The notes under the pieces: generated by a model
Seen by the model: the letters and a program-made list of their open reading frames with translations, nothing else
The model's database searches: none
Told to the model about the DNA's origin: nothing
Part shown: in pieces, positions 2,731 to 17,220 of the stretch
Position numbering within the stretch: the stretch's first letter is position 1
Layout of the letters: each line of letters starts with the position of its first letter
Translations under genes and position numbers: made by a program
Source of the DNA: a virus
DNA: 17,442 nucleotides
IMG/VR virus record: IMGVR_UViG_3300034159_000059
Strand: one strand, 5' to 3'

Positions 2731-2759
2731 GGCAAAACAAGGGTCCTCGGAGCAATAAG
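2731..2759 (+). promoter_or_regulatory. promoter-like element GGCAAA-N17-AATAAG
   Basis: member of the recurring bipartite motif (see findings); 48 nt upstream of ATG2807. Confidence 0.3.
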
Positions 2760-2806
2760 ACATATAGTGAAGGAAGTAAGGTCTTCACTCTCTCGGGGAG
2801 GACATC

Positions 2807-3178
2807 ATGGGTATCTCGGTTCAAGACCTTGGAAAAGCCATCCGCTTGGAGCTGGAAGGTGTGAAGCGCAGTCTCGACTCGTTCGAGATCAGCCCGTTGG
2901 GACGAGAACGGGTGATGCTCATCGTCAACCGTTTCGAAGCGGCCACAGAAGCTGACCTGGAGCTCTACCGAACCACTCACCTCGATGTCCGTCCGAGTCT
3001 TCAAGGACGCCTGGACAACCTCCGGGACCTTCCGAGGGCTATCCACGGCGCCGTCGACGACGCTCACAACGTCAAGTGGCTGGCAGAGTGGTTCATCGAA
3101 GCCGAAGGGGATCCTCAGAGCGGTCTCAGAGCCGCTCTCGAAACAACCTCCCAGCCCGATTCCGGGCTGGTCAACTGA
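2807..3178 (+). CDS. hypothetical protein (123 aa)
   Basis: GGGGAGG 6 nt before ATG; long ORF; no recognisable domain. Confidence 0.6.
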   Translation: MGISVQDLGKAIRLELEGVKRSLDSFEISPLGRERVMLIVNRFEAATEADLELYRTTHLDVRPSLQGRLDNLRDLPRAIHGAVDDAHNVKWLAEWFIEAEGDPQSGLRAALETTSQPDSGLVN

Positions 3179-3189
3179 AGGTGGAGACG

Positions 3190-3357
3190 ATGGCTCCAGT
3201 TCTAGAAGAAGCCCGCCAAGAGAAGAAGGCCCATCAGAAGAAGACACCGAGACCTATCAGGCGGGTCCTTCTAGCACTGGAGCACGAGGGTGCGAAGAGC
3301 GCTGTGGAGAGCATCGAAGAAGCGCTCGCTGCCCTCTCCGAAGAGAATCCGAAGTAG
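3190..3357 (+). CDS. hypothetical small protein (55 aa)
   Basis: GAAGGTGGAG RBS before ATG3190, 11 nt after stop of previous gene; Lys/Glu-rich helical-looking peptide. Confidence 0.4.
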   Translation: MAPVLEEARQEKKAHQKKTPRPIRRVLLALEHEGAKSAVESIEEALAALSEENPK

Positions 3358-3456
3358 CGAAGCTAGTAGAGAGGCTCTCTTCTGTCCTCCCGGAGAGTCT
3401 CGGCGGCGGGGTCTCCCTCACTCCGCCGTTTTTAGGCCGAATTCTGCGCCACTATT

Positions 3457-3485
3457 AGCAAATCCATGGTCTCAGCCGGCATAAG
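3457..3485 (+). promoter_or_regulatory. promoter-like element AGCAAA-N17-CATAAG
   Basis: bipartite motif, 52 nt upstream of ATG3538. Confidence 0.3.
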
Positions 3486-3537
3486 GGGTTTGACGGAGAA
3501 GGTACGCATTCCGTTCTAAACCCGTTGGGAGGACACC

Positions 3538-3672
3538 ATGATCAAGACCATCATCAAGAACATCGCCATCTACTCGATCGCTGCGTTCGTCGGCGGCGCC
3601 GTCGCCGGCTGGGCCTTCCGCGGGCGCCGCGAGAAGAAGAGCGTCGTGTCGGAGGCCAGGAAGGCTGCGTAG
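3538..3672 (+). CDS. small single-pass membrane protein (44 aa)
   Basis: not in the 60-aa-threshold track; GGGAGG 5 nt before ATG3538; translation MIKTIIKNIAIYSIAAFVGGAVAGWAFRGRREKKSVVSEARKAA has a hydrophobic TM helix then a basic tail; stop 3670-3672; followed by a terminator. Confidence 0.5.
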   Translation: MIKTIIKNIAIYSIAAFVGGAVAGWAFRGRREKKSVVSEARKAA

Positions 3673-3696
3673 GCACCTTTCCCGCATCTGGTTGAA

Positions 3697-3730
3697 AGAG
3701 GCGCTCGAAGTCTGAGCGCCTCTTTTCTTA
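3697..3730. terminator. intrinsic terminator (between convergent genes)
   Basis: AGAGGCGCTC-gaagtct-GAGCGCCTCT then TTTCTT; between convergent genes 3538..3672(+) and 3776..4081(-). Confidence 0.75.
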
Positions 3731-3775
3731 GCCCTGTCTTCCCTCTACAACCCCCAGACCCAGGGCGCTGGTTGC

Positions 3776-4081
3776 CTAACCCATCATCAGGGAGGAGCCA
3801 AGAGAGCAGCCAGTCTCTTCAGGGGATGGCTGCTCTTGTTCTCTGGCCAGTGTCAGAACGATCCCTCCCTCGGTAGAGACCGACTGGATCCTGACGTGAG
3901 GGGAACGAACCGCCTTGACGAGACGTTCCATCCGCTCGCGCACAAGAGAATCACTCTCCCCGATGTAGAACAGATCAGGTAGCTCGGTGGTTGAAGCCTT
4001 GTAGCGACCATCGGGCAGCCGCTCGACAGCAACAGTGAGATCCATTAGAGCCTCCAGAGATGTGTAAGGGTAAGAGGACAT
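3776..4081 (-). CDS. HicB-like antitoxin-fold protein (UPF0150/HicB N-terminal domain), no DNA-binding tail
   Basis: minus-strand gene inside a + strand array. The segment VAVERLPDGRYKASTTELPDLFYIGESDSLVRERMERLVKAV matches the HicB N-domain pattern (E-x-DGGY-x-A-x-x-PDLPG-x-x-x-G-x-T-x-EEA-x-x-N-x-x-EA). ATG at 4081; the track's TTG4099 is an alternative start. Confidence 0.5.
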   Translation of the reverse strand: MSSYPYTSLEALMDLTVAVERLPDGRYKASTTELPDLFYIGESDSLVRERMERLVKAVRSPHVRIQSVSTEGGIVLTLAREQEQPSPEETGCSLGSSLMMG

Positions 4082-4175
4082 CTCTCGGTCCCAAGTCAAC
4101 CCCCGATAACCGAAAGAGCCCCATCTTTCTTGTCTGGCATTCTCTCATTCCCAGAGGGGGAACTCTATATGGGTG

Positions 4176-4256
4176 CTAGGGCGGATAGGTGGGACGGCCC
4201 TTTTGCCTTAGAAAACACCTCTCACTTCTTGAGATAAGACGTTCAAGAGGAGCCAC
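4176..4256 (-). pseudogene. possible decayed hicA remnant
   Basis: minus-strand frame reads VAPLERLISRSERCFLRQKGRPTYPP*; RLISRSERCFLRQKG resembles the HicA core (ELIKxLEKxGWxLVRQKGSH) but stops about 30 aa early and has no proper ATG; sits where hicA would lie upstream of hicB. Confidence 0.2.
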
Positions 4257-4344
4257 GAGTGCTCCAACTGGTATAGAGACAATCTACCTACTCTTTAAGT
4301 GATAAGGTCTGGGACCGAAAAACCGGCCCAACTACCAGGAGCAG

Positions 4345-4611
4345 GTGATGCCCAACGCCGTCCTTCATAGTATCGCGGAGTCGGTGACCGATATCGACTC
4401 CGGCGAAAGAAAAAAGGCCCTCGATTCCGTAGACGAACAGTTTCGGACCCAGGCGGAGATGGAGCTGGATCGGCTCATAAATACTGGCATCACCAGAGTC
4501 GCCGACGCAGTGCGCTATGGAGAGTTCGAGAAAGCGACTGAGTTGGTGATCAGGTTGCGCAGAGAGGTGACGACGTACCATCCCTCCACTGCGAACACGA
4601 AGTCCTGCTAG
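4345..4611 (+). CDS. hypothetical protein (88 aa)
   Basis: AGGAGCAGG before ATG; GATAAG boxes at 4233 and 4301 upstream. Confidence 0.6.
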   Translation: MMPNAVLHSIAESVTDIDSGERKKALDSVDEQFRTQAEMELDRLINTGITRVADAVRYGEFEKATELVIRLRREVTTYHPSTANTKSC

Positions 4612-4653
4612 CACGTGGGGTATTCCCCATTCACAAGCAGCGTGCAGGTAGGC

Positions 4654-4696
4654 AGGAGGGGGCGGCGCCTTCTAGGCCGCAGCGCCCTCCTTTTTT
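4654..4696 (+). terminator. intrinsic terminator
   Basis: GC-rich imperfect hairpin GGAGGGGGCGGC...GCCGCAGCGCCCTCC followed by TTTTTT then AGCC. Confidence 0.65.
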
Positions 4697-4710
4697 AGCC
4701 CATACTAATA

Positions 4711-4739
4711 GGAAAGACTTCCAGAGAGTTAGTCATAAG
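4711..4739 (+). promoter_or_regulatory. promoter-like element GGAAAG-N17-CATAAG
   Basis: bipartite motif, 39 nt upstream of ATG4779. Confidence 0.3.
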
Positions 4740-4778
4740 AGTCCATGGAGATTCACCCCTAGTACAGTAGGAGAGAAC

Positions 4779-5261
4779 ATGACCGGACTGGAGAAGCTGA
4801 AGCTCTTCAAGGAGAAGTTTCTGCAACTCACTCGTCTGCAAGGGCGATCGGAGATCCCGTCGCAGATGAGAAAGCCGATCGAGGCTGCTCTGAAGGTGGT
4901 CACCAACCTTCAAATCGAAGCCCTCTTCCTGAAGCTGGGGGAGGCGAACTGGAGACCGAAGGAGACGATGGAAGGGACCCTCAACGGCGCCATGTTCTCG
5001 GTGGCCTATACGCTTGGGAACTTCATCGATCGCTACGTCGCCGCTTCTGCGGAAGTCGATCCATGGGTGAAGCAGGCTGCTCCCTTCTTCGAGGAGCTGA
5101 AGGCTGTGGCTACTAGCCTCTACAGCGCTTCCACGGAGCCTGGGCAGGAGATCGGGGTCTCTCCGGACGCCCCGTTGATGGAGCCGATCACCCGGGCGAG
5201 CTTCCCGGACATCGAAACAAACGCACTGGTTGGCGGTCTCATGACCGCATCCTCGAAGTAG
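4779..5261 (+). CDS. hypothetical protein (160 aa)
   Basis: GTAGGAGAGAAC before ATG; long ORF; no recognisable domain. Confidence 0.65.
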   Translation: MTGLEKLKLFKEKFLQLTRLQGRSEIPSQMRKPIEAALKVVTNLQIEALFLKLGEANWRPKETMEGTLNGAMFSVAYTLGNFIDRYVAASAEVDPWVKQAAPFFEELKAVATSLYSASTEPGQEIGVSPDAPLMEPITRASFPDIETNALVGGLMTASSK

Positions 5262-5287
5262 GGCTTCTCTCGCTCTGAGTAGAAGCC

Positions 5288-5578
5288 ATGAAATACCTGA
5301 TCGGCAGAGCAACAGTCCTTCTTCAAGGACTGATCTTTTCCAAGGTCGAGGTCATGGCAGTTTCAGAGGACGAGCAGGGAGTGGTCTTCTTCGAGTACCG
5401 AGGAGACCTCATTCTGCTCGTTCCTCCAGAGTCTCGACCGCTCTTGATTGAAGGGTTCCCGTTCGAGACGAAGGTGGGAACTCTCCAACTCACCCCGTCC
5501 GCTCCTATGAGCGTTGCAGCACTGGCAGAGACTGGAAAGGTCGTAGCTCAACTCGTCTTCGGCAGGAGTACTACATGA
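5288..5578 (+). CDS. hypothetical protein (96 aa)
   Basis: ORF ending in ATGA overlap with next gene; weak SD at 5288, alternative start ATG5354 has an AAGGTCGAGG box. Confidence 0.45.
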   Translation: MKYLIGRATVLLQGLIFSKVEVMAVSEDEQGVVFFEYRGDLILLVPPESRPLLIEGFPFETKVGTLQLTPSAPMSVAALAETGKVVAQLVFGRSTT

Positions 5579-6018
5579 GGTCTTCTAAACTCACGACCGC
5601 GAACGTCGAAACCGTCTTCCAGAAGTGCCTCTTCCCCAAGGACCGGGCGGACTTCGACCACGCCATCGTGGTGGACGGCACGCAGGAGTGCTTCGCCTTC
5701 GAGGTGGAGAAGATCCAGGAGAACCGGGACCAGATTCACTCCATGCTCTCGGAGCTTCCGGAGTCGTTCATCGAAGGCGTCGGGGAAGGCGGGAGCTTCT
5801 TCCTGGCCGGCTTCGACCGGTACGGGAATGAGTGGGCGGCCCACCACGGGGAGATGGAGAAGCTGTTCGCGCTCGGCAAGGCGTCTGGAGACATCGAGGT
5901 GATCGTCGAGGATGGAGTCGGAGGTCTTCCCATCTTCCTGGTGACGATGGACTCGACCGAGAAGCTGGTTGGGAAGGGGTCTCACGCCTTCCACGAGCTG
6001 CGAGAAATTGGGGCCTAA
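5575..6018 (+). CDS. hypothetical protein (147 aa)
   Basis: ATG5575 overlaps the previous stop (ATGA); AGGAG 8 nt upstream; acidic protein. Confidence 0.65.
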   Translation: MRSSKLTTANVETVFQKCLFPKDRADFDHAIVVDGTQECFAFEVEKIQENRDQIHSMLSELPESFIEGVGEGGSFFLAGFDRYGNEWAAHHGEMEKLFALGKASGDIEVIVEDGVGGLPIFLVTMDSTEKLVGKGSHAFHELREIGA

Positions 6019-6020
6019 CG

Positions 6021-6048
6021 GCTCCGGGGCGGATTTCCGCCCCTCTTA
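6021..6048 (+). terminator. intrinsic terminator
   Basis: GGGGCGG-attt-CCGCCCC then TCTTAGCCC, 3 nt after stop. Confidence 0.55.
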
Positions 6049-6058
6049 GCCCAAGATC

Positions 6059-6087
6059 GGCAAATGCACTGAGGGTGCAGTCATAAG
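6059..6087 (+). promoter_or_regulatory. promoter-like element GGCAAA-N17-CATAAG
   Basis: bipartite motif, 22 nt upstream of ATG6110. Confidence 0.3.
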
Positions 6088-6109
6088 GGCTACGGAGGAA
6101 ACATACACC

Positions 6110-6334
6110 ATGGAACCAGCACGACTTCAGGCTTTGAAGAAGGACGCTGAAAGTCGGGGGCCGAATCAAGTAATCATTCTTCCCCCGCCCGAAGTCCTGG
6201 AACTGGTGGTGGAGCTGGAGATGTGGAGGCTTTGGGGTACTCGTATCGCGGCCATCGCGGGCGAGATGCCGAAGGAAGTCTCCATGGATTCGAAGGCTTC
6301 TGACAATCAGTCCCAGGCGATCGATCAGCAATGA
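6110..6334 (+). CDS. hypothetical protein (74 aa)
   Basis: GGAGG 11 nt upstream; small acidic protein. Confidence 0.5.
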   Translation: MEPARLQALKKDAESRGPNQVIILPPPEVLELVVELEMWRLWGTRIAAIAGEMPKEVSMDSKASDNQSQAIDQQ

Positions 6335-6410
6335 TAGCAGCACTGGGAATACCCAAGTACGTGGGACGTAGACTAGTCTCATCAAGAACTGGTAATTGAG
6401 GGAGAGGGAT

Positions 6411-6686
6411 ATGAATCCAGAACTTCAGAAGATACTACGCTACTTCCTGGAGCTTCGAGACGAGAGTCTCAAGATCATCAACGACCTCAAGATCCCCGAG
6501 GTAGACAAGGCGCAGCACAGAATCGAACTGAACAGCAGTTACTACACTCGGTGCTCCGTCATCTTGTGGACGCTGGCTCACAGCTCGCCCATCGATCCCT
6601 CGATCATCGAGGAAACTACGCGGCCTATTCAGGCCAAGAGAGACCAGCTCCGTCACATGACAGAGCTTTCACAAGTGAGTCTGTAG
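6411..6686 (+). CDS. hypothetical protein (91 aa)
   Basis: GGGAGAGGG immediately before ATG6411 (in frame with the track's 6396 start). Confidence 0.55.
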   Translation: MNPELQKILRYFLELRDESLKIINDLKIPEVDKAQHRIELNSSYYTRCSVILWTLAHSSPIDPSIIEETTRPIQAKRDQLRHMTELSQVSL

Positions 6687-6692
6687 CAAGAA

Positions 6693-6727
6693 GAGGGTGC
6701 TGGGGACCTCCCCAGCACCCTCTTTCC
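6693..6727 (+). terminator. intrinsic terminator
   Basis: perfect 14-bp stem GAGGGTGCTGGGGA-cc-TCCCCAGCACCCTC followed by TTTCC. Confidence 0.8.
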
Positions 6728-6744
6728 ACAATGGGAGGACTATC

Positions 6745-7602
6745 ATGGCTACTCAGCAGACGGCTCCGGTTTCTCTACGAGGCAGGATTGCAGTCGTGGC
6801 TCCGACGTTTCTGTCTACGTTCCAGAATCGTATGGCTGCGCTTCTCAATGAGGAGAAGAATCCGGAGCACGTGCTGACCATGGACTCCATCACCGACGAG
6901 GTGGATGTTCAGACCCGGTTCCTGATGCGTATTCTCGCCAGGAAGCCGGCACCTCTGGCTCTCATCACCGTCTCTGTCCGTCCCACGCCCGAGATGATTC
7001 GTGCGTTCAGGGAAGCCCAGATCCCGGTGGTGTTGATCGACGAGGAGGCACCGGGAGCGGCAACGGTTGCGGCCGACAACTTCGTGGGTGGGTATCTCGC
7101 AGGAAGCCACCTGGCGAAGCTCGGTCGAAAGAGCGTGGCGATCATCTCTGGACGGACCGACGTGGCTGGCGGGTACAACGCCAAGCAGAGGGTCGAGGGA
7201 TTCCGCTCGGCTCTCGTGAAACAAGGTCTTCACATTCCTGACGGTGGGAAGTTCGAGGTCGAGCACTACACCGACAAGGAAGGAGAAGATCTCTCAGTGA
7301 TTCTCGCTTCCAGCAAGAAGTTCGACGGCGTGTTCGTGGCCGCCGGAGATTCTTGCGCACGAGGCATTCTACGAGGGGTTCGACGCGCAGGCGTGAACGT
7401 TCCCGATCAGATGGCGCTCGTCGGGTACGACGGCATGCTGGCCGCCGAAGTCTGCGCGGTACCTCTCACCACAGTGAAGCAACCCTTGCAGCAGATGGCT
7501 GCGGCTGCGATCCGGCTGGCCATCGCCGACCGGATGGAGACGCTGACGCACCCCAAGAAGATGGTCTACAAGCCCGAACTCATCGTGAGACGGTCAGCCT
7601 AG
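6745..7602 (+). CDS. LacI/GalR-family ligand-binding (PBP type-1) core domain protein lacking the HTH DNA-binding domain
   Basis: GGGAGG 6 nt before ATG6745. The C-terminal stretch DGVFVAAGDSCARGILRGVRRAGVNVPDQMALVGYDGMLAAEVCAVPLTTVKQPLQQMAAAAIRL aligns to the LacI core ([48 protein letters not shown]). The N-terminus RIAVVAPTFLSTFQNRMAALL aligns to the first strand/helix of the LacI core at about residue 60. No helix-turn-helix is encoded in this ORF or upstream of it. Confidence 0.75.
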   Translation: MATQQTAPVSLRGRIAVVAPTFLSTFQNRMAALLNEEKNPEHVLTMDSITDEVDVQTRFLMRILARKPAPLALITVSVRPTPEMIRAFREAQIPVVLIDEEAPGAATVAADNFVGGYLAGSHLAKLGRKSVAIISGRTDVAGGYNAKQRVEGFRSALVKQGLHIPDGGKFEVEHYTDKEGEDLSVILASSKKFDGVFVAAGDSCARGILRGVRRAGVNVPDQMALVGYDGMLAAEVCAVPLTTVKQPLQQMAAAAIRLAIADRMETLTHPKKMVYKPELIVRRSA

Positions 7603-7632
7603 TAGGTGGACGGTCCTCCCCGTCCGAAACAG

Positions 7633-7673
7633 AAGGGCCCGAGGCTACGACGCTCGGGCCCTTCGCTTTTTCA
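7633..7673 (+). terminator. intrinsic terminator
   Basis: perfect 12-bp stem GAAGGGCCCGAG-gctacgacg-CTCGGGCCCTTC followed by GCTTTTTC. Confidence 0.85.
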
Positions 7674-7705
7674 CATCCTAAGCCCAAACCCAGAAGAGGG
7701 AGAGC

Positions 7706-8806
7706 ATGATCACGGTATCGTACAAGCCCCTAGCTGCTGGCGAAGACCCGTGGGGACGGGTCATCGAGTCATTCATCGCCGGAGAGTTTCCGCAGGCTCA
7801 CAAGCACACGGAGAGCCGTCTCGACGCTGTCATGGAGGCCTTCCTGTCGACGAGGCAGCGTCGGTTGGGCCCCGTGCCTGGCGTGGAAGCACAGGCTGAG
7901 ATGCGGAAGGTCATCCGGCACTACATCGAGGCGAAGCTTCCCATTCCCGTCCTGATCCCCTTCGGCCCGAAGAAGCCCAAGGAGAGTGAGGGCATCGACG
8001 TCGCCGAGTTGGCGGCGTTGAAGGCTCTCGGATGTCTTCAGCGATCTGTCGTTCCGCACCACGAACCGGGGATGCACTTCCTGTTTCGCATGGAAGACCT
8101 TACCGGAAGGGTTCTGGAAGAGGGAACATCCGGTCTCTGGTCCGACATGTTCACGTACTGTCGGGACTTCAACCAACTCTCCGTGATCCTTGGGTACTCG
8201 GAGTTCATCGAAGTCGTGAAGGAGTCGGAACTCGGAAACCAGGACACCTTCTGGGCCGAGATGGCGAAGGCGCAGTCTGTTATGGAGACGTACCTGACGG
8301 AGAGTTGGAACTCTGAGTCTCCGGCCGACTGCGCGTCCTACCAGCCGCTCAAGGAGCTGGGGTTTGTCGGCATGGTGTCCCCCGCGCAGCGCGAGTTCTA
8401 CATGGACCGATACTCTCGGCTCTACCCGACACTCACAACGGACCAGCGCGTCACGCTGCTCGCGAAGTACCTCGCCTGCTCGCTCGTCCGTCGTAACCTC
8501 GGTATGACGGGAGCCAAGAAGGAGTGGGGCGGTCGCTGCCTGAGCCTGTCGTTCGCTCCACCGGCTCCGGACCAGGCCAACACTGCTGCGGCGAGGATCT
8601 ACTACCGAACGATCCCGCTCGACCACTCGAAGATCCACATGCCTCCGTGGCGCGCGAAAGGGATCTTGAAGTGCTCGGATGACAAGGTCCGATTCTCCAT
8701 GATCCCCTGGCAGGAGGTCGAGGCCGCGAATCTGTCTCCGGGGATGCTCATCGTGCAGTCGGGGAAGGATTGGGTTCCGGTGCGGGCGGACTACTTGCTG
8801 GAGTGA
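7706..8806 (+). CDS. hypothetical 366-aa protein; tentative resemblance to DIT1/PvcA (isonitrile synthase) family
   Basis: GAGGGAGAG before ATG7706; the largest ORF in the window. Local motifs PIPVLIPFGPKKPKES, PGMHFLFRMEDLTGRV and LSLSFAPPAPDQ...IHMPPWRAKG recall motifs I remember (possibly imperfectly) for IsnA/PvcA-type proteins, roughly (LPAFPAKSPN, PG..ICSDGRVF, RLSIHPQP...WLTPWHG). The match is recollection-based, not a search. Confidence 0.6.
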   Translation: MITVSYKPLAAGEDPWGRVIESFIAGEFPQAHKHTESRLDAVMEAFLSTRQRRLGPVPGVEAQAEMRKVIRHYIEAKLPIPVLIPFGPKKPKESEGIDVAELAALKALGCLQRSVVPHHEPGMHFLFRMEDLTGRVLEEGTSGLWSDMFTYCRDFNQLSVILGYSEFIEVVKESELGNQDTFWAEMAKAQSVMETYLTESWNSESPADCASYQPLKELGFVGMVSPAQREFYMDRYSRLYPTLTTDQRVTLLAKYLACSLVRRNLGMTGAKKEWGGRCLSLSFAPPAPDQANTAAARIYYRTIPLDHSKIHMPPWRAKGILKCSDDKVRFSMIPWQEVEAANLSPGMLIVQSGKDWVPVRADYLLE

Positions 8807-8827
8807 AACACAACGAGGAGAGAAGCC

Positions 8828-9271
8828 ATGGGTTGGGTTCCAAGCAAGGTGAAACTCTTGAAGGGGACTGAGAGAGTGTTGGTGAGAACTCTCCAGACGA
8901 CCACCAAGATGCAGCTCACGAAGGTCGAGGCAGTGGAGGACACGGGGCCGTTGGGAGACGTGGAGAGAAGGATCCGGCTCTGTCCGGACGTGGGGTATCC
9001 GGTCGTCCTGAAGGCGGAAGAGGAGATCTGGATCTTTCAGAGAGAGCAAGAGCCGAAGCCCGATACGGACCTCAAGGTAGGCGATGTGGTCCAGTTCACC
9101 AAGGAAGGAAAGGTGGAGGTCACCAAAACCAAAGAGAGGTCGGCCTACCAACTCGGTTGGGATGCTGGAATCGAGGCCGTCGAGAAGAGGGTCCTCGCCG
9201 CATCCATCACAGATGCCGTAGCCGTTCCGTGGTTGAAGAAGGTCTTCGCGGAGCTGAAAGAGCAAGGCTGA
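8828..9271 (+). CDS. hypothetical protein (147 aa)
   Basis: AGGAGAG 6 nt before ATG, 21 nt after previous stop (same operon); Lys/Glu/Val-rich, beta-rich look. Confidence 0.65.
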   Translation: MGWVPSKVKLLKGTERVLVRTLQTTTKMQLTKVEAVEDTGPLGDVERRIRLCPDVGYPVVLKAEEEIWIFQREQEPKPDTDLKVGDVVQFTKEGKVEVTKTKERSAYQLGWDAGIEAVEKRVLAASITDAVAVPWLKKVFAELKEQG

Positions 9272-9274
9272 GAA

Positions 9275-9306
9275 CATGGGCCCGGGAAACCGGGCCCATG
9301 TCTATT
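9275..9306. terminator. intrinsic terminator (between convergent genes)
   Basis: perfect 11-bp stem CATGGGCCCGG-GAAA-CCGGGCCCATG (GNRA-type loop) 3 nt after stop 9271; also lies 9 nt past the end of minus-strand gene 9315..9548. Confidence 0.75.
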
Positions 9307-9314
9307 ACCCAGTC

Positions 9315-9548
9315 TTAGCTCCTGCATGCGAGACATAGGATGATGAAGTACTGCTTCTCTGGACTCTCGGGCCATTCGACGGCCTGGAGTGGTTCGTTAG
9401 GAAACGGGTCGAAAGGGAGCAGGATCTCCCCGGTACGGCGAACCACCGTCACAGATCCATAGACGTTGAAGCTACGGCGCGCGAGTTCAAGCATTTGCTT
9501 GACCTTGAACCGGAACGCACGTTCCTCTTCCGCCTTCTGCCGATCCAC
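9315..9548 (-). CDS. hypothetical protein (77 aa), lone minus-strand gene
   Basis: ORF in track (GTG at 9554); a second GTG at 9548 has AGGA 6 nt upstream; basic N-terminus (RQKAEEERAFRFKVK); no recognisable domain. Confidence 0.4.
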   Translation of the reverse strand: MDRQKAEEERAFRFKVKQMLELARRSFNVYGSVTVVRRTGEILLPFDPFPNEPLQAVEWPESPEKQYFIILCLACRS

Positions 9549-9695: not shown

Positions 9696-9740
9696 GCCCT
9701 AGCAAGGAAACGCTGTTTCCATTCCCTTGAAGGAGCAGAC

Positions 9741-10594: not shown

Positions 10595-10601
10595 CCTGCG
10601 T

Positions 10602-10630
10602 AGGAACAGGGGGCACCCCTCCTGTTCTTA
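10602..10630 (+). terminator. intrinsic terminator
   Basis: AGGAACAGGGGG-cac-CCCCTCCTGTTCTT imperfect hairpin then TTAGCTC. Confidence 0.5.
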
Positions 10631-10739
10631 GCTCAAGGTCTCTCAAACCCTCGATGCTCTGGCCCACCGAAAAATTTCACTCAGGATGTAGGCATAAGGA
10701 AGAGAGGCCAATACCTGGACTCTTGGACTGGGAGGTCCT

Positions 10740-10988: not shown

Positions 10989-11012
10989 CGCCGAGCATCC
11001 CAAGGGAGACAC

Positions 11013-11330
11013 ATGAGAACACCGGAAGAGCTGGAGCGGCTGAAGAAGATTCGCAACGAAGCTGCGGCAAAGATCGCTGACTTCATCTCCAAGGAGGTGG
11101 ACCAGCTCTTCCTCGGCCACGACATGGATAAGCCTCCAGACGATGACCAGCTTGCCAAGCTCATCGGGTTGGCCTTCGGCGCGTGGAAGGGCAGCAAGAC
11201 GCTCTCCAACACCTTCGGGCTCGATGCCTGGACCTTGTCCGATGAGATGAGCGGAGATGTTGCCGTGAAGGAGCTGAAGAAGGTCGGCGACATCATGATC
11301 TCGCTCCACGCTGGAGGAATGAAGAACTGA
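11013..11330 (+). CDS. hypothetical protein (105 aa)
   Basis: AAGGGAGAC before ATG. Confidence 0.65.
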   Translation: MRTPEELERLKKIRNEAAAKIADFISKEVDQLFLGHDMDKPPDDDQLAKLIGLAFGAWKGSKTLSNTFGLDAWTLSDEMSGDVAVKELKKVGDIMISLHAGGMKN

Positions 11331-11333
11331 GCC

Positions 11334-11573
11334 ATGGCCAAGAAACCGATGCTTCCATTCCTCTCAGTTTTCAACAGCTCGGTGACGATGCAGTTGGAAG
11401 AGATGATCCACGACATCGAAACGATGAAAGGGCAGCTTGAGGATATGGGGGCAGAGAACCCCCGGATGAAGCACGTCATGCAGCCCATCGAGTATTCCCT
11501 GATCGGGATCGCACACGACCTGCGCGCGCTGCAAGAGAGACTAGAGAACCAAACCCCAAACTCACAGAAGTAG
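11334..11573 (+). CDS. hypothetical protein (79 aa)
   Basis: ATG 3 nt after previous stop; the nearest SD (GGAGG) is about 15 nt upstream, so the start is uncertain. Confidence 0.5.
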   Translation: MAKKPMLPFLSVFNSSVTMQLEEMIHDIETMKGQLEDMGAENPRMKHVMQPIEYSLIGIAHDLRALQERLENQTPNSQK

Positions 11574-11582
11574 GAGGCAACC

Positions 11583-11837
11583 ATGGCAAGGCCTGTATCT
11601 GAGGTTCGGTTGGAAGAAGCACTCCAGCTCCCAGCGGCGTCTGGCAAGGGGCAGGAGAGCACCGGAACGTTGGTCCCTGTCGTCTCAGGGGAAGAGCTTC
11701 GGGCACTGGCGTATGCGTGCGCTCCGGAGGCTTCGGAGATCAGGAACGTCCGCGTCGACAGTAGGACGTTCTACAGCCTGGTCTCGGAGCTGACTCTGCG
11801 CCGGGAGCGGGATGCACAGGCTCAGGGCAAGAAGTGA
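11583..11837 (+). CDS. hypothetical protein (84 aa)
   Basis: AGTAGGAGG before ATG. Confidence 0.55.
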   Translation: MARPVSEVRLEEALQLPAASGKGQESTGTLVPVVSGEELRALAYACAPEASEIRNVRVDSRTFYSLVSELTLRRERDAQAQGKK

Positions 11838-12034
11838 CTCCCAAGCCCTCGACGCCCGCGAACGGGGATGAGAGGTGCCCTGAGTGCCACAACTCAGGGA
11901 CCTGCTGGAAGTACACGTCTGACGAAGAAGACGTCATCAAGACGTACTGCACCTGTCCCAGGGGCATGGAACTGGAGGACTTGGACCTGGCCAAGTTCCT
12001 GAGTCTCCAGCAGCCGGTACAAACAACGCTCTAG
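11834..12034 (+). CDS. small Cys-rich protein (66 aa), possible zinc ribbon
   Basis: GTG overlaps the previous stop (GTGA); motif CPECHNSGTC...YCTCPRG. Confidence 0.45.
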   Translation: MTPKPSTPANGDERCPECHNSGTCWKYTSDEEDVIKTYCTCPRGMELEDLDLAKFLSLQQPVQTTL

Positions 12035-12044
12035 GAGGAGACAC

Positions 12045-12326
12045 GTGATCGTCAGACTCATTCACCTAAGCAACAAGGAAGAGTTCATCGAACTCCTGAA
12101 GAAGCTGGAAGGCACCCAGCATCCGAGCACCGACATCTTCGTGGAGGTGAGGGCTGGTTCTAGCGGACTCAACATCCTCCACATCTCGGCCCTGGGGTAC
12201 TTCGACGCCTTCCCAACGTTCTTTGAGCTGAAGCTCCCCACCGAGCAGAGGGAAGAAGTGGAGGCGTTCTTCAAGAGCAAGGAGCGCAAGGTCTACCAGG
12301 GATTCGTCAACTTCCTGGTCGACTGA
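12045..12326 (+). CDS. hypothetical protein (93 aa)
   Basis: strong RBS TAGGAGGAGACAC before GTG12045. Confidence 0.6.
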   Translation: MIVRLIHLSNKEEFIELLKKLEGTQHPSTDIFVEVRAGSSGLNILHISALGYFDAFPTFFELKLPTEQREEVEAFFKSKERKVYQGFVNFLVD

Positions 12327-12360
12327 TCGCTCTCCCACACCCGCGTAGCCGGTAGAGACC

Positions 12361-12633
12361 ATGAGCTCTCCCAAAGACAAAGAGAACGAGGAAGAAGCAG
12401 CCGAGCTAGTGAAGGTGTTTCGTGAGGGAAAGTCCGAGATTCTCAAGAAGATGGCTGAAATCGTCACCCAGTACACCGACGAGAGTCCGTTCTCCTTGGA
12501 GCTCATCGCCAGGCTGGCTGGTATGTATGCCGGGTATGGGATCATCCAAGAGGTCCTCAAGGACATGATGCAGAAGAACGGCACCCAAGCCCCCTTCGAT
12601 GCCTGGCTGTCAGGTATGAAGAACCTTCACTAG
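12361..12633 (+). CDS. hypothetical protein (90 aa)
   Basis: ATG ORF with GGTAGAGA upstream; last gene before terminator and the long non-coding region. Confidence 0.6.
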   Translation: MSSPKDKENEEEAAELVKVFREGKSEILKKMAEIVTQYTDESPFSLELIARLAGMYAGYGIIQEVLKDMMQKNGTQAPFDAWLSGMKNLH

Positions 12634-12643
12634 GCTGGTAGGA

Positions 12644-12678
12644 GAAGACGAGGGCTCTCTCCAGCCTCGTCTTTTCTT
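12644..12678 (+). terminator. intrinsic terminator
   Basis: AAGACGAGGGCT-ctctcc-AGCCTCGTCTT then TTCTTAGCCC. Confidence 0.7.
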
Positions 12679-13260
12679 AGCCCTAAAGCAGGCCGGCTCC
12701 TACGTACCCCCGAAAATTCTGGCCTGACACCCCTCCCCGGTCCCGTTCCCTGTTGCACCCCCCCACCCCCTTCTAAATCCCCCCCGAATCTATGGTACCA
12801 CTGTCCCCCTCCCTACCCCCTCCCTCTCAAGTTCTACTAGCTCATCAGCCAGGCGAGGTGGCGAGGGATGACTTCATGTCCTGTTGCTGCGCTTGCGGCC
12901 ATGAGAGACGCGCGCAGGGCCAGGCAAGAAGTACCCTCGATGCTTGAGCTGCCCTCTCCCGACTAGACGGCGGAGCTAACACAGAGGGATACCCTCCGGG
13001 CTAGTCCTACTCCTCGGCTCGTGCCTATGGCGCTGGAGCTGCTGCGCTGGCGATGCCATAGCACTTCCCCTGCTCCTTCCTCTCTCTATCTCCTGTCACA
13101 TGAGTGTCTCTCGAAGGACCATCATGGCCACCTAGTCGCGCCGACATGCTAAGGAGGCAAGTCTGAAATCGGATAACGCGCTGACGGCAGATACACAGAC
13201 TCGCGTGTCATAAGAACGTGGGTTGGGAAGTACACATGCTAACGCCTAAAGGGAGAACGC
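12679..13260. other. about 580-bp ORF-free region, strongly C-rich on + strand
   Basis: no ORF of 60 aa or more on either strand. 12720-12835 is a polypyrimidine/C-run tract including the tandem CCCCCTCCCTA/CCCCCTCCCTC. Imperfect inverted repeat at 13025-13062. Ends in a GGCAGA-N17-CATAAG promoter-like box. Confidence 0.6.
13186..13214 (+). promoter_or_regulatory. promoter-like element GGCAGA-N17-CATAAG
   Basis: bipartite motif, 46 nt upstream of ATG13261. Confidence 0.3.
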
Positions 13261-13524
13261 ATGAAGAAGGCAAAGCAGCAGAGCCAAGTCGTCGCTTGGG
13301 AGTTCATGAAGTCCAAGATCGTCGCGACTCCTTCGAAGTGGATACAGATGGCTCTGTCGGCACAGAGGATGGCCAGCAAGGCTGAGGACGAGTTCCTTCG
13401 AAGTCTGTTCGAGAAGTACGAGCTCGGAAAGAAAGTGGACATCGAAGCTGCGCTCGAAACCTTCTTGCGCGCTGGGAAGTTCTACACGGAGCTATCGAAC
13501 TTGATGAGAAAGGAGATCTCATGA
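13261..13524 (+). CDS. hypothetical protein (87 aa)
   Basis: AAGGGAGAA before ATG. Confidence 0.6.
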   Translation: MKKAKQQSQVVAWEFMKSKIVATPSKWIQMALSAQRMASKAEDEFLRSLFEKYELGKKVDIEAALETFLRAGKFYTELSNLMRKEIS

Positions 13525-13991
13525 CCGCGTCGAAGGGCTTGGACCGTGCATCAGTGCTCACACTCGCTGCCTTCATCCAGGATGAGGAGAGGAACGAGAA
13601 GACGCTTCGACATCTCTCTGACTGCGCTGAAGATGCAGCTAGGTCAGAAGAGCGACAGATGTTGAGGCTGCTCATCCAGAAGTTCGACGCCAAGGATGTT
13701 CCAGAGCAGGAGAGCGTCGCCAAGATGTACCGTCTGGTAAAGGAGAGAGCGATGTTCTTCCAAGCTCTCTCTGAGCTCATCGATCCGATCTACGGGGACA
13801 AGTACCTCGACTGGTGCGATGAGCATCATGACGAGCTCCTCAAGCATCCCAACTCCTTCATCGCCATCAGCATGAAGGAAAGAGTGGTGATCGCTGAATC
13901 GAACCAGGAAGTGTTCTGCAACAAGCTACGAGAGCTTCGAGAAGGCCGAGTCGATGAGCTCTTCGTCATACACACTTCGGCAGTCGTCTAA
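13521..13991 (+). CDS. hypothetical protein (156 aa)
   Basis: ATGA overlap with previous gene; AAGGAG RBS. Confidence 0.65.
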   Translation: MTASKGLDRASVLTLAAFIQDEERNEKTLRHLSDCAEDAARSEERQMLRLLIQKFDAKDVPEQESVAKMYRLVKERAMFFQALSELIDPIYGDKYLDWCDEHHDELLKHPNSFIAISMKERVVIAESNQEVFCNKLRELREGRVDELFVIHTSAVV

Positions 13992-14001
13992 GGAGAACGT
14001 G

Positions 14002-14589
14002 ATGAGCCAGAGCTGTCACTGTGGATCACAAACTCTTCATGGCTCGAACCCGATCCCAGTAGAAGACCTCACGGGGCTCTTACACGACCGCGATCACTGC
14101 GAGACCGTGGAGGAGCTGAAGAGGGGGATCGAAGAGCATCGCGCTCAATCCCAAGCGCGTCCGAAGTTCTACATGCTGCTGAGAAGCTACGCAGAGAACA
14201 GCACTCAGCATGAAGTGAACTACGGCTACGTCTACGGCCCGTTCACCAACAACGCAGAGGTAGACGAGGATCTGGCTCGTCGCCATCCCAACAACAAGGA
14301 CCTTCGAGTGTTGGTGGTCGAGGGCGATCTTCGCAGTGTCCCGCCTTCTCCTCTTGAGCGCCCAGAGAGTGAGAAGCGTGAACCTGGCAACCTCGACAAC
14401 TACGAGATGAAGGACGGCAAGTTCTTCTGCAAGGTCTGCGGCTCCATCATCTACGAGCAGAGAGTCGCGCATCCCATCCACATGAAGGGAACGAACAACG
14501 GCTTCGGCGAGTGCAAGTACGACAACGTTCCCTACTGTCCCAACTGCGACAAGAAGCCGTCGTTCAGCGGAGTTCCGGTCTACGTCTGA
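14002..14589 (+). CDS. hypothetical protein with C-terminal zinc-ribbon-like Cys cluster (195 aa)
   Basis: AAGGAG 7 nt before ATG14002 (the track's 13954 start overlaps the upstream gene); CHCG near N-terminus; C-terminal CKVCGS...CKYDNVPYCPNC. Confidence 0.65.
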   Translation: MSQSCHCGSQTLHGSNPIPVEDLTGLLHDRDHCETVEELKRGIEEHRAQSQARPKFYMLLRSYAENSTQHEVNYGYVYGPFTNNAEVDEDLARRHPNNKDLRVLVVEGDLRSVPPSPLERPESEKREPGNLDNYEMKDGKFFCKVCGSIIYEQRVAHPIHMKGTNNGFGECKYDNVPYCPNCDKKPSFSGVPVYV

Positions 14590-14795
14590 TGAAGGAGACT
14601 GAGGTGTCGGATGACAACGACAGATGGCACCGAGCACTCAAGAGCGTTCGGTCTAGTTGTTGTGGAGCTCCAGTGACTGGAGTCATCAAGAAAGGACAGT
14701 GGTGGGTAGTGGTCGAGTGCTCCGACTGTGGGGCTCAGCCACCTATGAGCGACTGCATCGAGCCAGGAGATCCGCTCGCACGACCTTATGAGTGA
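14589..14795 (+). CDS. small Cys-rich protein (68 aa)
   Basis: ATG shares one base with the previous stop (TGATG); CCGAP...ECSDCG motif; the upstream part of track ORF 14511 is just the 3' end of the previous gene read in another frame. Confidence 0.45.
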   Translation: MKETEVSDDNDRWHRALKSVRSSCCGAPVTGVIKKGQWWVVVECSDCGAQPPMSDCIEPGDPLARPYE

Positions 14796-14813
14796 CATCA
14801 AGGAGATGCCCAA

Positions 14814-15092
14814 GTGAAGAAGACCGTGGAGAAGAGTGAGTTCGAGAAGAACAAGACTCGCGCTAGGATCACCTCATCACGCATCAAGAGGAGGCTGAAG
14901 GGCGGGTTGATGGACTATCTCCTACTCGCTCGCGCTGCTGATCGGCGTGCGGCCATGTTCGAAGACTACGCACTGACCAACCTCCTCGAAGGTGAGCCAG
15001 CGAAGCCGAATCACATGCTGGACCGCGCCAAGAAGAACCTCGCCGACGCTGAGTACTTCCGAAGACTCGCCTCGATGCTTCGGAGTAACTGA
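14814..15092 (+). CDS. hypothetical basic protein (92 aa)
   Basis: AAGGAG 9 nt before GTG14814; Lys/Arg-rich N-terminus. Confidence 0.55.
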   Translation: MKKTVEKSEFEKNKTRARITSSRIKRRLKGGLMDYLLLARAADRRAAMFEDYALTNLLEGEPAKPNHMLDRAKKNLADAEYFRRLASMLRSN

Positions 15093-15131
15093 GATGAACG
15101 ATCAAGCGAAGAAGCTGATCGAGGAGAGTTC

Positions 15132-15554
15132 ATGGGAAGTCCGGCATACGAACCGCTGACCGCCGAAGAGATAGAGCAGTTGCTTCCTCGCGTAATATCA
15201 GCGGCCTGGCGACGTCGTGAATTCCCCATCCCTGTGTTCGACTGTCATAGCTTCTCCAGTGGTCTCTATGGCATCCGAGTGCTCTTCGATGCCGGCATCG
15301 AGGAAGACGGTCAGAAGTGGGTGCACGTGTCCATTTCTCGTGAAGACCGTGAGCCCTCTTGGGAAGACTTGACCACGGTGAAGCGCCTCTTCCTAGGCGA
15401 CGAACGCTGGGCCTACCAAGTCATTCCGCCACAGAGCGAGTTCTACAACGTGGGACTGCCTGGACGCGGTCTACATGTCTTGCATCTCTGGTCGCCTCTC
15501 GACAACAAGCCCAGATTGCCCAACTTCCTCCAGGCCAGAGGAGGAACACTGTAG
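15132..15554 (+). CDS. hypothetical protein (140 aa)
   Basis: GAGGAGAG 4 nt before ATG15132; overlapped upstream by a 21-codon mini-ORF at 15094 (see findings). Confidence 0.6.
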   Translation: MGSPAYEPLTAEEIEQLLPRVISAAWRRREFPIPVFDCHSFSSGLYGIRVLFDAGIEEDGQKWVHVSISREDREPSWEDLTTVKRLFLGDERWAYQVIPPQSEFYNVGLPGRGLHVLHLWSPLDNKPRLPNFLQARGGTL

Positions 15555-15577
15555 CAACAAGAGAAAGAGAGCAAGAC

Positions 15578-15757
15578 GTGACATCGATGTGGGTGCTGCT
15601 GATCTTCATGAAAGCGACCGCGCCGATTGGAGGCGTATCGATGGCACAGGTCTCTGGATTCCACTCTCCAGAGACTTGCATGGTCGCTGCGAAGTGGGTG
15701 TTCAAACAGAACGACCGAGGTTTCATCATCGACGCGACATGCGTAGAGGTGAAGTGA
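15578..15757 (+). CDS. small hydrophobic-N-terminus protein (about 57-60 aa)
   Basis: GTG15578 after purine-rich AGAAAGAGAG, or ATG15587; N-terminus MWVLLIFMKATAPIGG looks signal-peptide-like. Confidence 0.4.
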   Translation: MTSMWVLLIFMKATAPIGGVSMAQVSGFHSPETCMVAAKWVFKQNDRGFIIDATCVEVK

Positions 15758-15760
15758 CTC

Positions 15761-16141
15761 ATGATCACAGATCAAGAAGTGGAGTTCCAGTTCACTGACT
15801 ACGGAGGCGAAGCCACTCACTTCTTCGGGATTCGCAAGCTGGGGTTTCTCGAAGAAGGCGGCTTCATCATCGTCGGGTACCTATCTCCCGCCGGCGCTCT
15901 CCGGAACACTCTCTCAACGAGCATCCCCATCAGCTCAACGGAGTACCGACAGAAGAATGCGACACTGACCAGGTACATGCGCAACCTGGACACTGCGATC
16001 GTCATCGACGACGACTGGGGCCACGCCTACGCCATCGTAGGCTCCAAGGAGTTCATCGATCAGGTAGTTGAGGACTGCATCAAGCATAAAGTTCCCAAGG
16101 ATCTATCCCTCCAACGCCTGCACGACTCAGGAGAGCTCTGA
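15761..16141 (+). CDS. hypothetical protein (126 aa), paralog of the next gene
   Basis: QEVEFQFTDY...HFFGIRKLGFLEEGGFIIVGY and DDDWGHAYAIVG align with QEVSFYLKYQ...HLVGFRKLGFEVSGHFIIEAF and ANDWGRVYTIRA of 16143..16739. Confidence 0.65.
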   Translation: MITDQEVEFQFTDYGGEATHFFGIRKLGFLEEGGFIIVGYLSPAGALRNTLSTSIPISSTEYRQKNATLTRYMRNLDTAIVIDDDWGHAYAIVGSKEFIDQVVEDCIKHKVPKDLSLQRLHDSGEL

Positions 16142-16142
16142 A

Positions 16143-16739
16143 ATGAGCATCAAGAACCAAGAGGTGTCGTTCTATCTCAAGTATCAAGAGTGGTTCCATG
16201 ACAAGCTTCAAGATGTCACCCAACACCTCGTCGGGTTCCGCAAACTAGGATTCGAGGTATCAGGCCACTTCATCATCGAGGCTTTCACAGTTCCGCCGTC
16301 CGAGCGAAGTGCGGGGTATGGTAACTACTACCATGACGTGGCGATCAGCGAACCGCTCTATCGACGCCACAAGCCGACGGGAACCTACTACGTGAGAGCT
16401 TCTGATGTGGAACTCTCCATCGCCAATGACTGGGGCAGGGTCTACACAATCAGAGCCCTGAAGATCCTCATCGACCTACTGGCGGCGGAGTGTGAGCGAT
16501 TCGAGATCCCTCAGAAAGCGGAGGTCTCCGTCAGTGTCGGCGACCTTCTCCGGGAGTCGTTCGAGGCTGCTCGTAAGACCGACAACGTCGTCTCCGTTCG
16601 CAGAGCTATGGACCCAAAGGAGCGAGGTCCTGGCATCGTCAAGCTCTTCCCCGAGCCCATGGTGATCAACTACGAGGCATGGCTCGACGAGCATGACCTC
16701 TTGCCTGATGCCGAGACGCATCTGGTTGGGAAACCATGA
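16143..16739 (+). CDS. hypothetical protein (198 aa), longer paralog of the previous gene
   Basis: AGGAGAG 8 nt before ATG16143, 1 nt after previous stop; shares its N-terminal half with 15761..16141, plus about 80 extra C-terminal aa. Confidence 0.65.
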   Translation: MSIKNQEVSFYLKYQEWFHDKLQDVTQHLVGFRKLGFEVSGHFIIEAFTVPPSERSAGYGNYYHDVAISEPLYRRHKPTGTYYVRASDVELSIANDWGRVYTIRALKILIDLLAAECERFEIPQKAEVSVSVGDLLRESFEAARKTDNVVSVRRAMDPKERGPGIVKLFPEPMVINYEAWLDEHDLLPDAETHLVGKP

Positions 16740-17191
16740 ACGAGAACGCAAAGAGGCTGATTGAGAAGTTCCTCTGCCCTGGTTGTGTCTGTGGCATGAA
16801 CGTGGACTGCGGACACTACAAGCCTGGTGAGGGAGGCGATGAGAAGCCTGGGTTCGAGTGTCTAGGTCATGTGCTCGGAACAGTGCTTATGCCAGGCATC
16901 GGGAACATCGCTCTCGGGCTGCCGAAGGGTTTCAACCGTCCCGGATACTGCCCCTTATGCAAGAGGTCGCCCAACCAGATGCCTGTGCGCCTCTGGCCGG
17001 CAGGAACACATCCGAAATGGGATGACTTCAACATCCCAGTCTGGGCTCTAGAGAAGGACGGGTTTCTCTTCGTTCGAACGGCATGTCCGAGAGTGGCGTA
17101 CTACTTCGTGGATGTGTTCGAAGGAGGCAAGGCGTCGGAGCTCTGCCCTCGCGCCATCGACATGACGTCTCAGTACGACAGCTACGACTAG
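16736..17191 (+). CDS. Cys-rich protein (151 aa), putative metal-binding
   Basis: ATGA overlap with previous gene; CPGCVCGMNVDCGHY...FECLGH...YCPLC; N-terminal MNENAKRLIE is duplicated at 15094. Confidence 0.65.
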   Translation: MNENAKRLIEKFLCPGCVCGMNVDCGHYKPGEGGDEKPGFECLGHVLGTVLMPGIGNIALGLPKGFNRPGYCPLCKRSPNQMPVRLWPAGTHPKWDDFNIPVWALEKDGFLFVRTACPRVAYYFVDVFEGGKASELCPRAIDMTSQYDSYD

Positions 17192-17220
17192 AGCAAGAGT
17201 GATGTCTCTTCTGACATAAG
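17192..17220 (+). promoter_or_regulatory. promoter-like element AGCAAG-N17-CATAAG
   Basis: bipartite motif, 47 nt upstream of ATG17268; overlaps the short inverted repeat GATGTC..GACAT. Confidence 0.3.

Follow-up and report, generated by a model that had tools for sequence, protein, structure and literature searches.

T4-like phages carry a repeated cassette, the PeSL (promoter-early stem-loop), in which a stem-loop terminator, an early promoter of the form -35/N17/-10, a Shine-Dalgarno (SD) sequence and a start codon follow one another between ORFan genes (PMC2839356, PMC4122927). The element described here is a bipartite motif with the refined consensus rGmAAr-N14-G-NN-ATAAG-r, which recurs in a 17,442-nt stretch of viral DNA (IMG/VR record IMGVR_UViG_3300034159_000059; the whole stretch is called the window below), and the closest architecture to it is that of the PeSL cassettes of T4-like myoviruses. 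Both show, here at part of the sites, the order terminator, promoter, SD sequence and start codon, and they share many repeats in one orientation among small ORFans and a phage-specific consensus, and in both the promoter is followed at a short distance by the SD sequence and the start of an ORFan (here ATAAG ends 39-53 nt short of the start codon at 13 of the 16 sites). They differ in that PeSL promoters are sigma70-like (TTGACA/TTTACW ... TATAAT/TAYWAT), whereas the motif has rGmAAr upstream and a -10 block ending in an invariant G. Moreover, the stem-loop is not paired with every site here, and the phage is not demonstrably T4-like. The sequence and placement of the sites make it very likely that they form a class of promoters, whatever the polymerase, and we lean slightly towards a sigma-type holoenzyme with a non-primary sigma factor, phage-encoded or an alternative sigma of the host, as the enzyme that would read them.

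Jumbo phages that encode their own RNA polymerase (RNAP) have an AT-rich motif of about 10 nt near -10 upstream of their early operons, which can be found bioinformatically (PMC7598289), and in Thermus phage P23-45 the virion polymerase has a conserved motif both at its pre-early promoters and at its terminators (PMC10770324). The present motif is similarly a short, AT-rich conserved block that can be found by sequence in front of early operons and is restricted to one gene class, and as in P23-45 the terminators also carry a conserved sequence. However, the promoters of those phages are single contiguous blocks that end at or near the start, e.g. cTTATTCCTTTA in P23-45, with no second block at 17 bp; here the 9-nt block G-NN-ATAAG-r has a second block 17 bp upstream. 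The reverse complement of the P23-45 promoter contains GGAATAAG, which we judged to be a coincidence, the orientation to the genes being opposite. Conserved promoter motifs that are not of the sigma70 type and belong to an unknown factor have been detected by ONT-cappable-seq in the Pseudomonas phages YuA and 14-1 (PMC10914365). Those motifs are different ones (that of 14-1 has a CTGGG core), and their start sites are experimental whereas the motif reported here is known from sequence alone.

Promoters with a phage-specific consensus that are read by the host core enzyme with a phage sigma factor include the gp28 middle promoters of SPO1 (AGGAGA-N17/18-TTTnTTT) and the gp55 late promoters of T4 (TATAAATA). 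The former resemble the motif in their purine-rich -35 and the latter in their nATAA core, but neither has the same sequence as the motif, a -35 is lacking in T4 late promoters, and a sigma gene was not seen in the 45 kb of DNA read here. An assignment of the motif to the T4 late class itself was rejected, as its sixth base is G instead of A and a -35 block is present. The consensus sequences of sigma28, sigma32 and the sporulation sigma factors partly resemble the motif (ATAA/CAT core, purine- or A-rich -35); their register or conserved bases differ and they are leads only. A search of the literature for CATAAG with promoter and phage returned nothing relevant.

The window has a G+C content of 57.2% and belongs to an assembly contig of 109,055 bp (Logan SRR10968273_102441). 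The 45 kb that were read, of a contig of at least 109 kb, consist of a 36-kb composite and the next 9 kb, which hold tail genes; position numbers are window coordinates unless an L-number (L002, L003, L011, L012 etc.) is given. In an alignment of 16 copies ATAAG is invariant and the next base is always a purine, while the base before ATAAG is variable (C 8, A 3, G 3, T 2). Also invariant is a G three bases 5' of the first A of ATAAG, which the preliminary description of this DNA had not noticed; the four plus-strand copies of ATAAG that lie inside coding sequence all lack it. The upstream block reads r-G/a-m-A-A-r, with its two A's present in 16 and 15 of the 16 copies. A purine lies 7 nt 3' of the motif in all sites but one (15/16). 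Neither the 14 positions between the blocks nor the flanks are informative, and for this reason the conservation is not explained by a recent duplication.

On the plus strand of the 36-kb composite there are 16 copies of GNNATAAGR and on the minus strand none, and every copy is intergenic; intergenic DNA makes up 18% of this sequence. The window alone contains ten matches, all on the plus strand, against 1.84 expected on both strands, and none of 200 shuffles reached ten. CATAAG was found ten times in the window (3.25 expected), its seven plus-strand copies being the intergenic ones. The spacing is equally strict: the upstream block [AG][AG][AC]AA stands at a spacer of 17 in 14 of 16 sites, while no other spacer from 8 to 29 has it in more than three. 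When the sequence was scanned with a position weight matrix, the 16 members scored 16.5-21.8 bits and one variant 13.3, and nothing else on either strand exceeded 9 bits.

The preliminary description had listed seven sites with two hexamers exactly 17 bp apart, all of which are where it placed them (seven matches to its pattern against 0.05 expected). Because that pattern was written after the sites had been seen, the motif was tested in three independent ways: with a Gibbs sampler, in flanking DNA and in a related phage. The unsupervised Gibbs sampler, applied to all upstream regions after the Shine-Dalgarno stretch had been trimmed, returned ATAAGrr as its top motif. In the flanking DNA six further plus-strand intergenic copies were found (-884, 18743, 22911, 24904, 25061 and 25674) with the hexamers AACAAC, AGAAAG, AGAAAA, TGCAAA, GACAAG and AGAAAA at the 17-bp spacer; in five of the six a purine-rich hexamer xGmAAr is found at the same distance. 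RRMAA-N16-GNNATAAGR has nine matches in the window against 0.01 expected. Some details had to be revised. The copies at 4233, 4301 and 10693, described as weaker, belong fully to the class, with the G at -3 and with AGAAAA, GACAAT and AAAAAT, respectively, at the 17-bp spacer. A CTAAG variant reported at 1379 was out of register and lacks the G and A, the real candidate being ACAAG at 1387. The CTAAG at 7678 has neither the G nor a -35 block and is part of a variant terminator tail (7672-7685, CCTAAGCCC). In total the window therefore holds ten full copies and one ACAAG variant (Table 1).

Table 1. Putative promoters and terminators of the window
Feature	Start	End	Strand	Sequence or structure	Context
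Variant promoter candidate	1363	1392	+	AGCAAT-N14-G-gt-ACAAG-A	ACAAG 1387-1391; 43 nt before ATG 1435; 13.3 bits
Promoter-like site	2731	2760	+	GGCAAA-N14-G-ca-ATAAG-A	47 nt before ATG 2807; predicted start near 2766
Intrinsic terminator	3401	3438	+	hairpin, T-run, tail TTAGGCC; -19.6 kcal/mol	
Promoter-like site	3457	3486	+	AGCAAA-N14-G-gc-ATAAG-G	52 nt before ATG 3538; after terminator 3401-3438
Terminator hairpin	3695	3733	+	then TTTTC-TTAGCC; -23.3 kcal/mol	
Promoter-like site	4210	4239	+	AGAAAA-N14-G-ag-ATAAG-A	upstream member of tandem pair before gene 4348; 109 nt from start codon
Promoter-like site	4278	4307	+	GACAAT-N14-G-tg-ATAAG-G	41 nt before start codon 4348; weakest -35 block
Terminator hairpin	4655	4700	+	then TTTT-TTAGCC; -26.6 kcal/mol	
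Promoter-like site	4711	4740	+	GGAAAG-N14-G-tc-ATAAG-A	39 nt before ATG 4779; after terminator 4655-4700
Terminator hairpin	6026	6051	+	then CTC-TTAGCC	
Promoter-like site	6059	6088	+	GGCAAA-N14-G-tc-ATAAG-G	22 nt before ATG 6110; after terminator 6026-6051
Promoter-like site	9667	9696	+	GGAAAG-N14-G-gc-ATAAG-G	45 nt before ATG 9741; divergent gap after minus-strand gene 9315-9548
Terminator hairpin	10603	10633	+	then GTTC-TTAGCT	
Promoter-like site	10670	10699	+	AAAAAT-N14-G-gc-ATAAG-G	41 nt before ATG 10740; after terminator 10603-10633
Terminator hairpin	12644	12682	+	then TTTTC-TTAGCC	
Promoter-like site	13186	13215	+	GGCAGA-N14-G-tc-ATAAG-A	46 nt before ATG 13261; end of 627-bp non-coding gap
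Promoter-like site	17192	17221	+	AGCAAG-N14-G-ac-ATAAG-A	47 nt before ATG 17268

The third test made use of the 161-amino-acid (aa) gene at 25732, which has a homologue with 59% amino-acid identity on a 1,128-bp contig (L012) from another sample (JGI 3300064354). L012 contains two perfect copies of the motif in 1.1 kb, GGCAAA-N14-G-tg-ATAAG-A upstream of the homologue (90-119) and GGAAAA-N14-G-gc-ATAAG-A at 748-777, together with two CTTAGCCC terminator tails. In the orthologous pair TGAGTGATAAGAAG is identical and the 17-bp spacing has been kept, while the spacer itself is the least conserved stretch and has largely diverged; the -35 blocks, AGAAAA in the phage and GGCAAA in L012, are both within the consensus. 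L012 also has an extra unit of putative promoter and terminator. On L009, a contig of the same relative with 90% identity, no copy was found, and the corresponding region of the window has none either. In the low-GC relatives of a 366-aa protein encoded in the window (L005-L008), ATAAG is neither enriched nor positioned.

The leader of the 161-aa gene folds into a 10-bp hairpin (L003 18939-18985, L012 131-175; z = -3.75), which the relative has kept, a G-U pair being replaced by G-C. Where L009 (1-400) is compared with positions 6330-6760, a different small gene is found upstream of a binding-protein gene, and about 40 bp of intergenic sequence are shared at the left junction (6337-6376). This difference, which is not at a motif site, points to a mosaic gene replacement. 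A 453-kb relative has a recurrent element of its own, TTTTACCARA, that is unrelated to the motif in sequence (L007 6882, 10129, 11495, 14071 and 19642; also L008); it lies 7-18 nt upstream of start codons, with five plus-strand copies in the 21 kb of L007.

The distribution of the motif follows the gene layout. A left arm of 7 kb consists of minus-strand genes, including those for a GH108 endolysin and an Acb2/Tad1-like protein, and is joined through a divergent region of about 950 bp, with helix-turn-helix (HTH) genes on both strands, to a rightward block of about 27 kb. This block comprises small, mostly ORFan plus-strand genes, and the whole window lies inside it. A right module of minus-strand genes, among them those for a Laminin_G_3 protein and a sheath-like protein of 1105 aa, completes the part that was read. 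The motif is confined to the rightward block. It is absent from both strands of the left (lysis) arm, and in the 9 kb of tail genes beyond the composite even ATAAG is missing from both strands. Two small ORFans without a Pfam family, 3776-4045 (89 aa) and 9315-9548 (77 aa), are embedded in the window on the minus strand and have no copy; both adjoin divergent gaps that hold motif copies, none of them on their own strand. The genes nearest to the putative promoters likewise have no Pfam family. The distances of 39-52 nt, or 22 nt for 6059-6087, that had been given between the listed sites and their start codons are correct. Three sites fall outside the usual range: 6083 with 22 nt, 4234, the upstream tandem member, with 109 nt, and 25061 with 125 nt. 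At site 6059 the predicted leader of about 16 nt would begin at the Shine-Dalgarno sequence, and at site 17192 the -35 block directly follows the stop codon of the gene 16736-17191.

Many sites lie directly 3' of strong hairpin terminators. A terminator or stem-loop is found immediately upstream of 3457, 4711, 6059, 10670, 18720 and probably 22887, but not of 2731, 9667, 13186 or 17192. The earlier view that the motif precedes the first gene after a terminator holds only in part: it fails at 2731 and 17192, which have no convincing hairpin upstream, and at 4210, 4278 and 9667, which are in divergent gaps after minus-strand genes. The terminators share a tail after the hairpin and T-run, with the consensus TTTTC-TTAGC(C/T)C (3428-3438, 3721-3733, 4691-4700, 6041-6051, 9311-9320, 10621-10633 and 12671-12682; also in L003 and at 735-742 and 857-864 of L012). 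All nine plus-strand copies of CTTAGC are intergenic and adjoin the 3' side of a hairpin whose energy lies between -19 and -29 kcal/mol. Whichever enzyme reads the promoters may use the conserved tail as its specific signal for termination or processing. After the terminators 1996-2040, 6693-6727 and 7635-7685 there is no promoter and the ribosome-binding site of the next gene follows directly; as these terminators are without a motif copy, the downstream genes (2060, 6745 and 7706) would need read-through or antitermination. In two places, L003 18326-18440 (about 25061-25175) and L012 748-864, a motif copy is followed some 75-105 nt later by a strong CTTAGC-tailed terminator with no open reading frame (ORF) in between. 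Judged by this arrangement, the two units are candidate small RNAs; they show no obvious similarity to each other and no Rfam match.

We propose that the sites constitute one promoter class, from which the small, early-type and mostly ORFan genes of the rightward block would be transcribed. With the first A of ATAAG numbered -11, the invariant G is at -14, the upstream block covers -35 to -30 and the downstream purine comes to lie at +1. Bacterial core RNAP with a non-primary sigma (one encoded by the phage or an alternative sigma of the host) rather than the housekeeping one would read the sites and initiate at the purine about 7 nt downstream of the -10 block nATAAG, giving a leader of about 35-45 nt with a GGAGG-type ribosome-binding site. 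The promoters would re-start transcription after the strong terminators (hairpin, T-run and CTTAGCy tail), and the block would thereby be cut into short units of one to eight genes, an arrangement resembling the T4-like cassettes.

It is the two-block layout with 17 bp between the blocks, the G at -14 and the purine at +1 that make a sigma-bearing bacterial holoenzyme the best reading. A sigma70 promoter has two blocks separated by 17 +/- 1 bp, and 14 of 16 sites have a spacer of 17. Extended -10 promoters of sigma70 (TGnTATAAT) share with the motif G-14, A-11, T-10, A-9, A-8, the 17-bp spacer and a purine about 7 nt downstream. The remaining positions do not agree. T-15 and T-12 are unconserved (-15 is A 7, C 4, G 2, T 3, next to G-14 in 16/16), and the preliminary description was right that the hexamers match sigma70 poorly: rGmAAr is unrelated to TTGACA, with only the A at -32 matching consistently, and position -7 is G in 16/16 and never T, A-11 being present in 16/16. 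To our knowledge T at -7 is close to universal in primary sigma factors, the base being held in a conserved pocket. A passage of PMC7598289, citing structural work, describes A-11 and T-7 as flipped into pockets of sigma region 2. Given the binding of T-7 that this passage describes, an invariant G at -7 would be unexpected for a primary sigma, and together with a -35 unlike TTGACA it favours a non-primary one.

Several observations weigh against a non-primary sigma. A phage-encoded sigma was sought, as the preliminary description had suggested, but Pfam searches and precomputed Pfam lists for 45 of the at least 109 kb gave no sigma-like gene. The cro-like HTH gene that heads the block uses the same motif, so any phage sigma would have to come from another promoter or enter with the virion. 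Of the 'TG' of an extended -10 only the G is conserved. A housekeeping consensus peculiar to the lineage of the host would be compatible with the sites. Finally, a phage polymerase would account just as well for the conserved terminator tail and the kinship to very large phages. The original proposal of promoters for a special sigma factor is supported in silico as far as promoters are concerned; a special sigma is consistent with the data, which a phage polymerase fits nearly as well. We also entertain, tentatively, the idea that motif and CTTAGCy tail form a self-contained phage transcription system with an undescribed phage-encoded factor (a divergent sigma or a phage polymerase) that recognises G instead of T at -7 and a purine-rich -35 and serves only the early/accessory block of a lineage of large uncultured myoviruses.

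A phage-encoded RNAP, virion-delivered or made early and either multisubunit or of the two-barrel single-subunit type, is the main rival as reader of the sites, though a less likely one. For such an enzyme G-NN-ATAAG-r would coincide with the start or immediately precede it, the A-rich block would provide an additional contact and the CTTAGCy tail would be its termination signal. The early motifs of jumbo phages and the paired promoter and terminator motifs of P23-45 are precedents, and the terminators here also carry a conserved tail, with CTTAGC intergenic in all nine cases. The G of ATAAG and the next purine (16/16) would suit a purine start at +1/+2. Sigma70-like promoters are no commoner than chance anywhere: a canonical scan gave one match against 4.1 expected and stayed at or below chance throughout. 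The same proteins occur on a contig of 0.2-1 Mb and a homologue of the 366-aa protein on a phage-like contig of 453 kb. However, two blocks at a rigid 17 bp, 14 unconserved bases between them and a G at -14 are sigma-type geometry, which speaks against a phage polymerase since the known promoters of such enzymes each form one contiguous block. The 45 kb examined, out of at least 109 kb, showed no polymerase gene, the low-GC relatives with the 366-aa homologue do not share the motif, and the divergent HTH pair hints at a repressor-type switch, which would be awkward for a virion-delivered enzyme. Two particular promoter types were rejected: that of T7-like single-subunit RNAP has about 20 contiguous conserved bp (-17 to +3), whereas 14 spacer positions are uninformative here, and the hairpin promoter of the N4 virion RNAP (5-7 bp stem, 3-nt loop) does not agree with a mean z of -0.8 for spacer folding and with several stemless sites.

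It is improbable that the motif is simply the housekeeping promoter of a host lineage whose primary sigma prefers hexamers other than those of E. coli, although the position of the sites is of the early type, the first gene of the block (cro-like HTH) is under the same motif and no other promoter type is visible in the block. The consensus of the T4-like early cassettes, too, tracks the host sigma70 with phage-specific deviations (PMC4122927). The near-universal T-7 of primary sigma factors, set against G in 16/16 here, argues the other way, as does the lack of copies at the minus-strand genes within and flanking the block. Least probable of all is a non-promoter role, be it an RNA-level leader signal for processing or translational control, a protein operator or what is left of a duplicated cassette. 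For promoters, the sites keep an unusually narrow range of distances to the start codon, and some spacers contain short dyads, but these are not general (mean z -0.8) and leader folding is not significant overall (mean z -0.77). Moreover, strong terminators precede most copies and would keep transcription from upstream from reaching them, and the element is asymmetric and bipartite with a DNA-helical spacing.

The source of the window is an uncultured contractile-tailed phage without a close cultured relative, and its genome is probably large. No close relative was found among 50,697 phage records, either by megablast of the window or by tblastn of several proteins. Weak, scattered tblastn matches were to Myxococcus phage Mx4 (one protein, 30%), to Streptomyces phages (a DUF3307 protein) and to Pseudomonas phages (the endolysin). 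Window proteins recur on a second contig, that of 0.2-1 Mb. Scans of IMG/VR with window proteins gave no related loci; of the JGI metagenome scans one was empty and the other yielded a single weak partial match without the motif. Scans of GTDB genomes with the LacI-type binding protein and the GH108 endolysin, made to infer the host, produced no match. No tRNA genes were found, and no Rfam family matched in 40 kb.

The divergent pair that heads the block (L002 7354-8166, about -1440 to -628) has on its minus side a 104-aa ORF and a 65-aa HTH gene in a toxin-antitoxin-like or repressor-like arrangement. On its plus side is the 67-aa cro-like HTH gene, for which a motif copy (TATAAG) would be the promoter, and a palindrome, TACATGTA, lies about 45 bp upstream of this copy. 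Further into the block, 6745-7602 encodes a protein with a LacI-type periplasmic-binding fold (Pfam Peripla_BP_3, E = 2e-22) from which the DNA-binding domain is absent. The gene after it, 7706-8806, is that of the 366-aa ORFan, which has only seven matches in 5.8 billion proteins, one of them on the 453-kb phage-like contig.

The 627-bp non-coding gap at 12634-13260, which ends with the promoter-like site 13186, has no Rfam match. At about 12,715-12,840 it contains a long polypyrimidine tract with C-runs such as CCCCTCCCC, CACCCCCCCACCCCC, CCCCCCC and CCCCCTCCCTACCCCCTCCCTCTC, followed by GC-rich dyads. Possible roles of the gap are those of an origin, a site for packaging or a region that forms a triplex. 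In a divergent gap of the tail module (L011 15938-16127, about 31,670-31,860) the dyad GTGAAAnCCCCTTTCAC occurs twice, 60 bp apart, whereas the rest of the 45 kb has no copy; an operator, or an activator site for another promoter class, is a possible role.

Recurrent phage-specific promoter motifs with terminators are familiar from the PeSLs of T4-like phages, the early promoters of jumbo phages and P23-45, and in this light the finding is solid and its kind unsurprising. The host-takeover module of SPO1 is a further example. The consensus itself, as a putative promoter sequence deduced from the DNA, is previously undescribed and well supported. It provides a map of transcription units, drawn from sequence only, for an uncultured phage, with 10-11 predicted in the window and at least 16 in the block, and it sets the early/accessory genes apart as a class of their own, distinct from the lysis and tail modules. 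Because the motif has a G where the sigma70 family binds a flipped T, a matching factor would show how recognition of the -10 element can be re-specified, and it could supply an orthogonal pair of promoter and factor.

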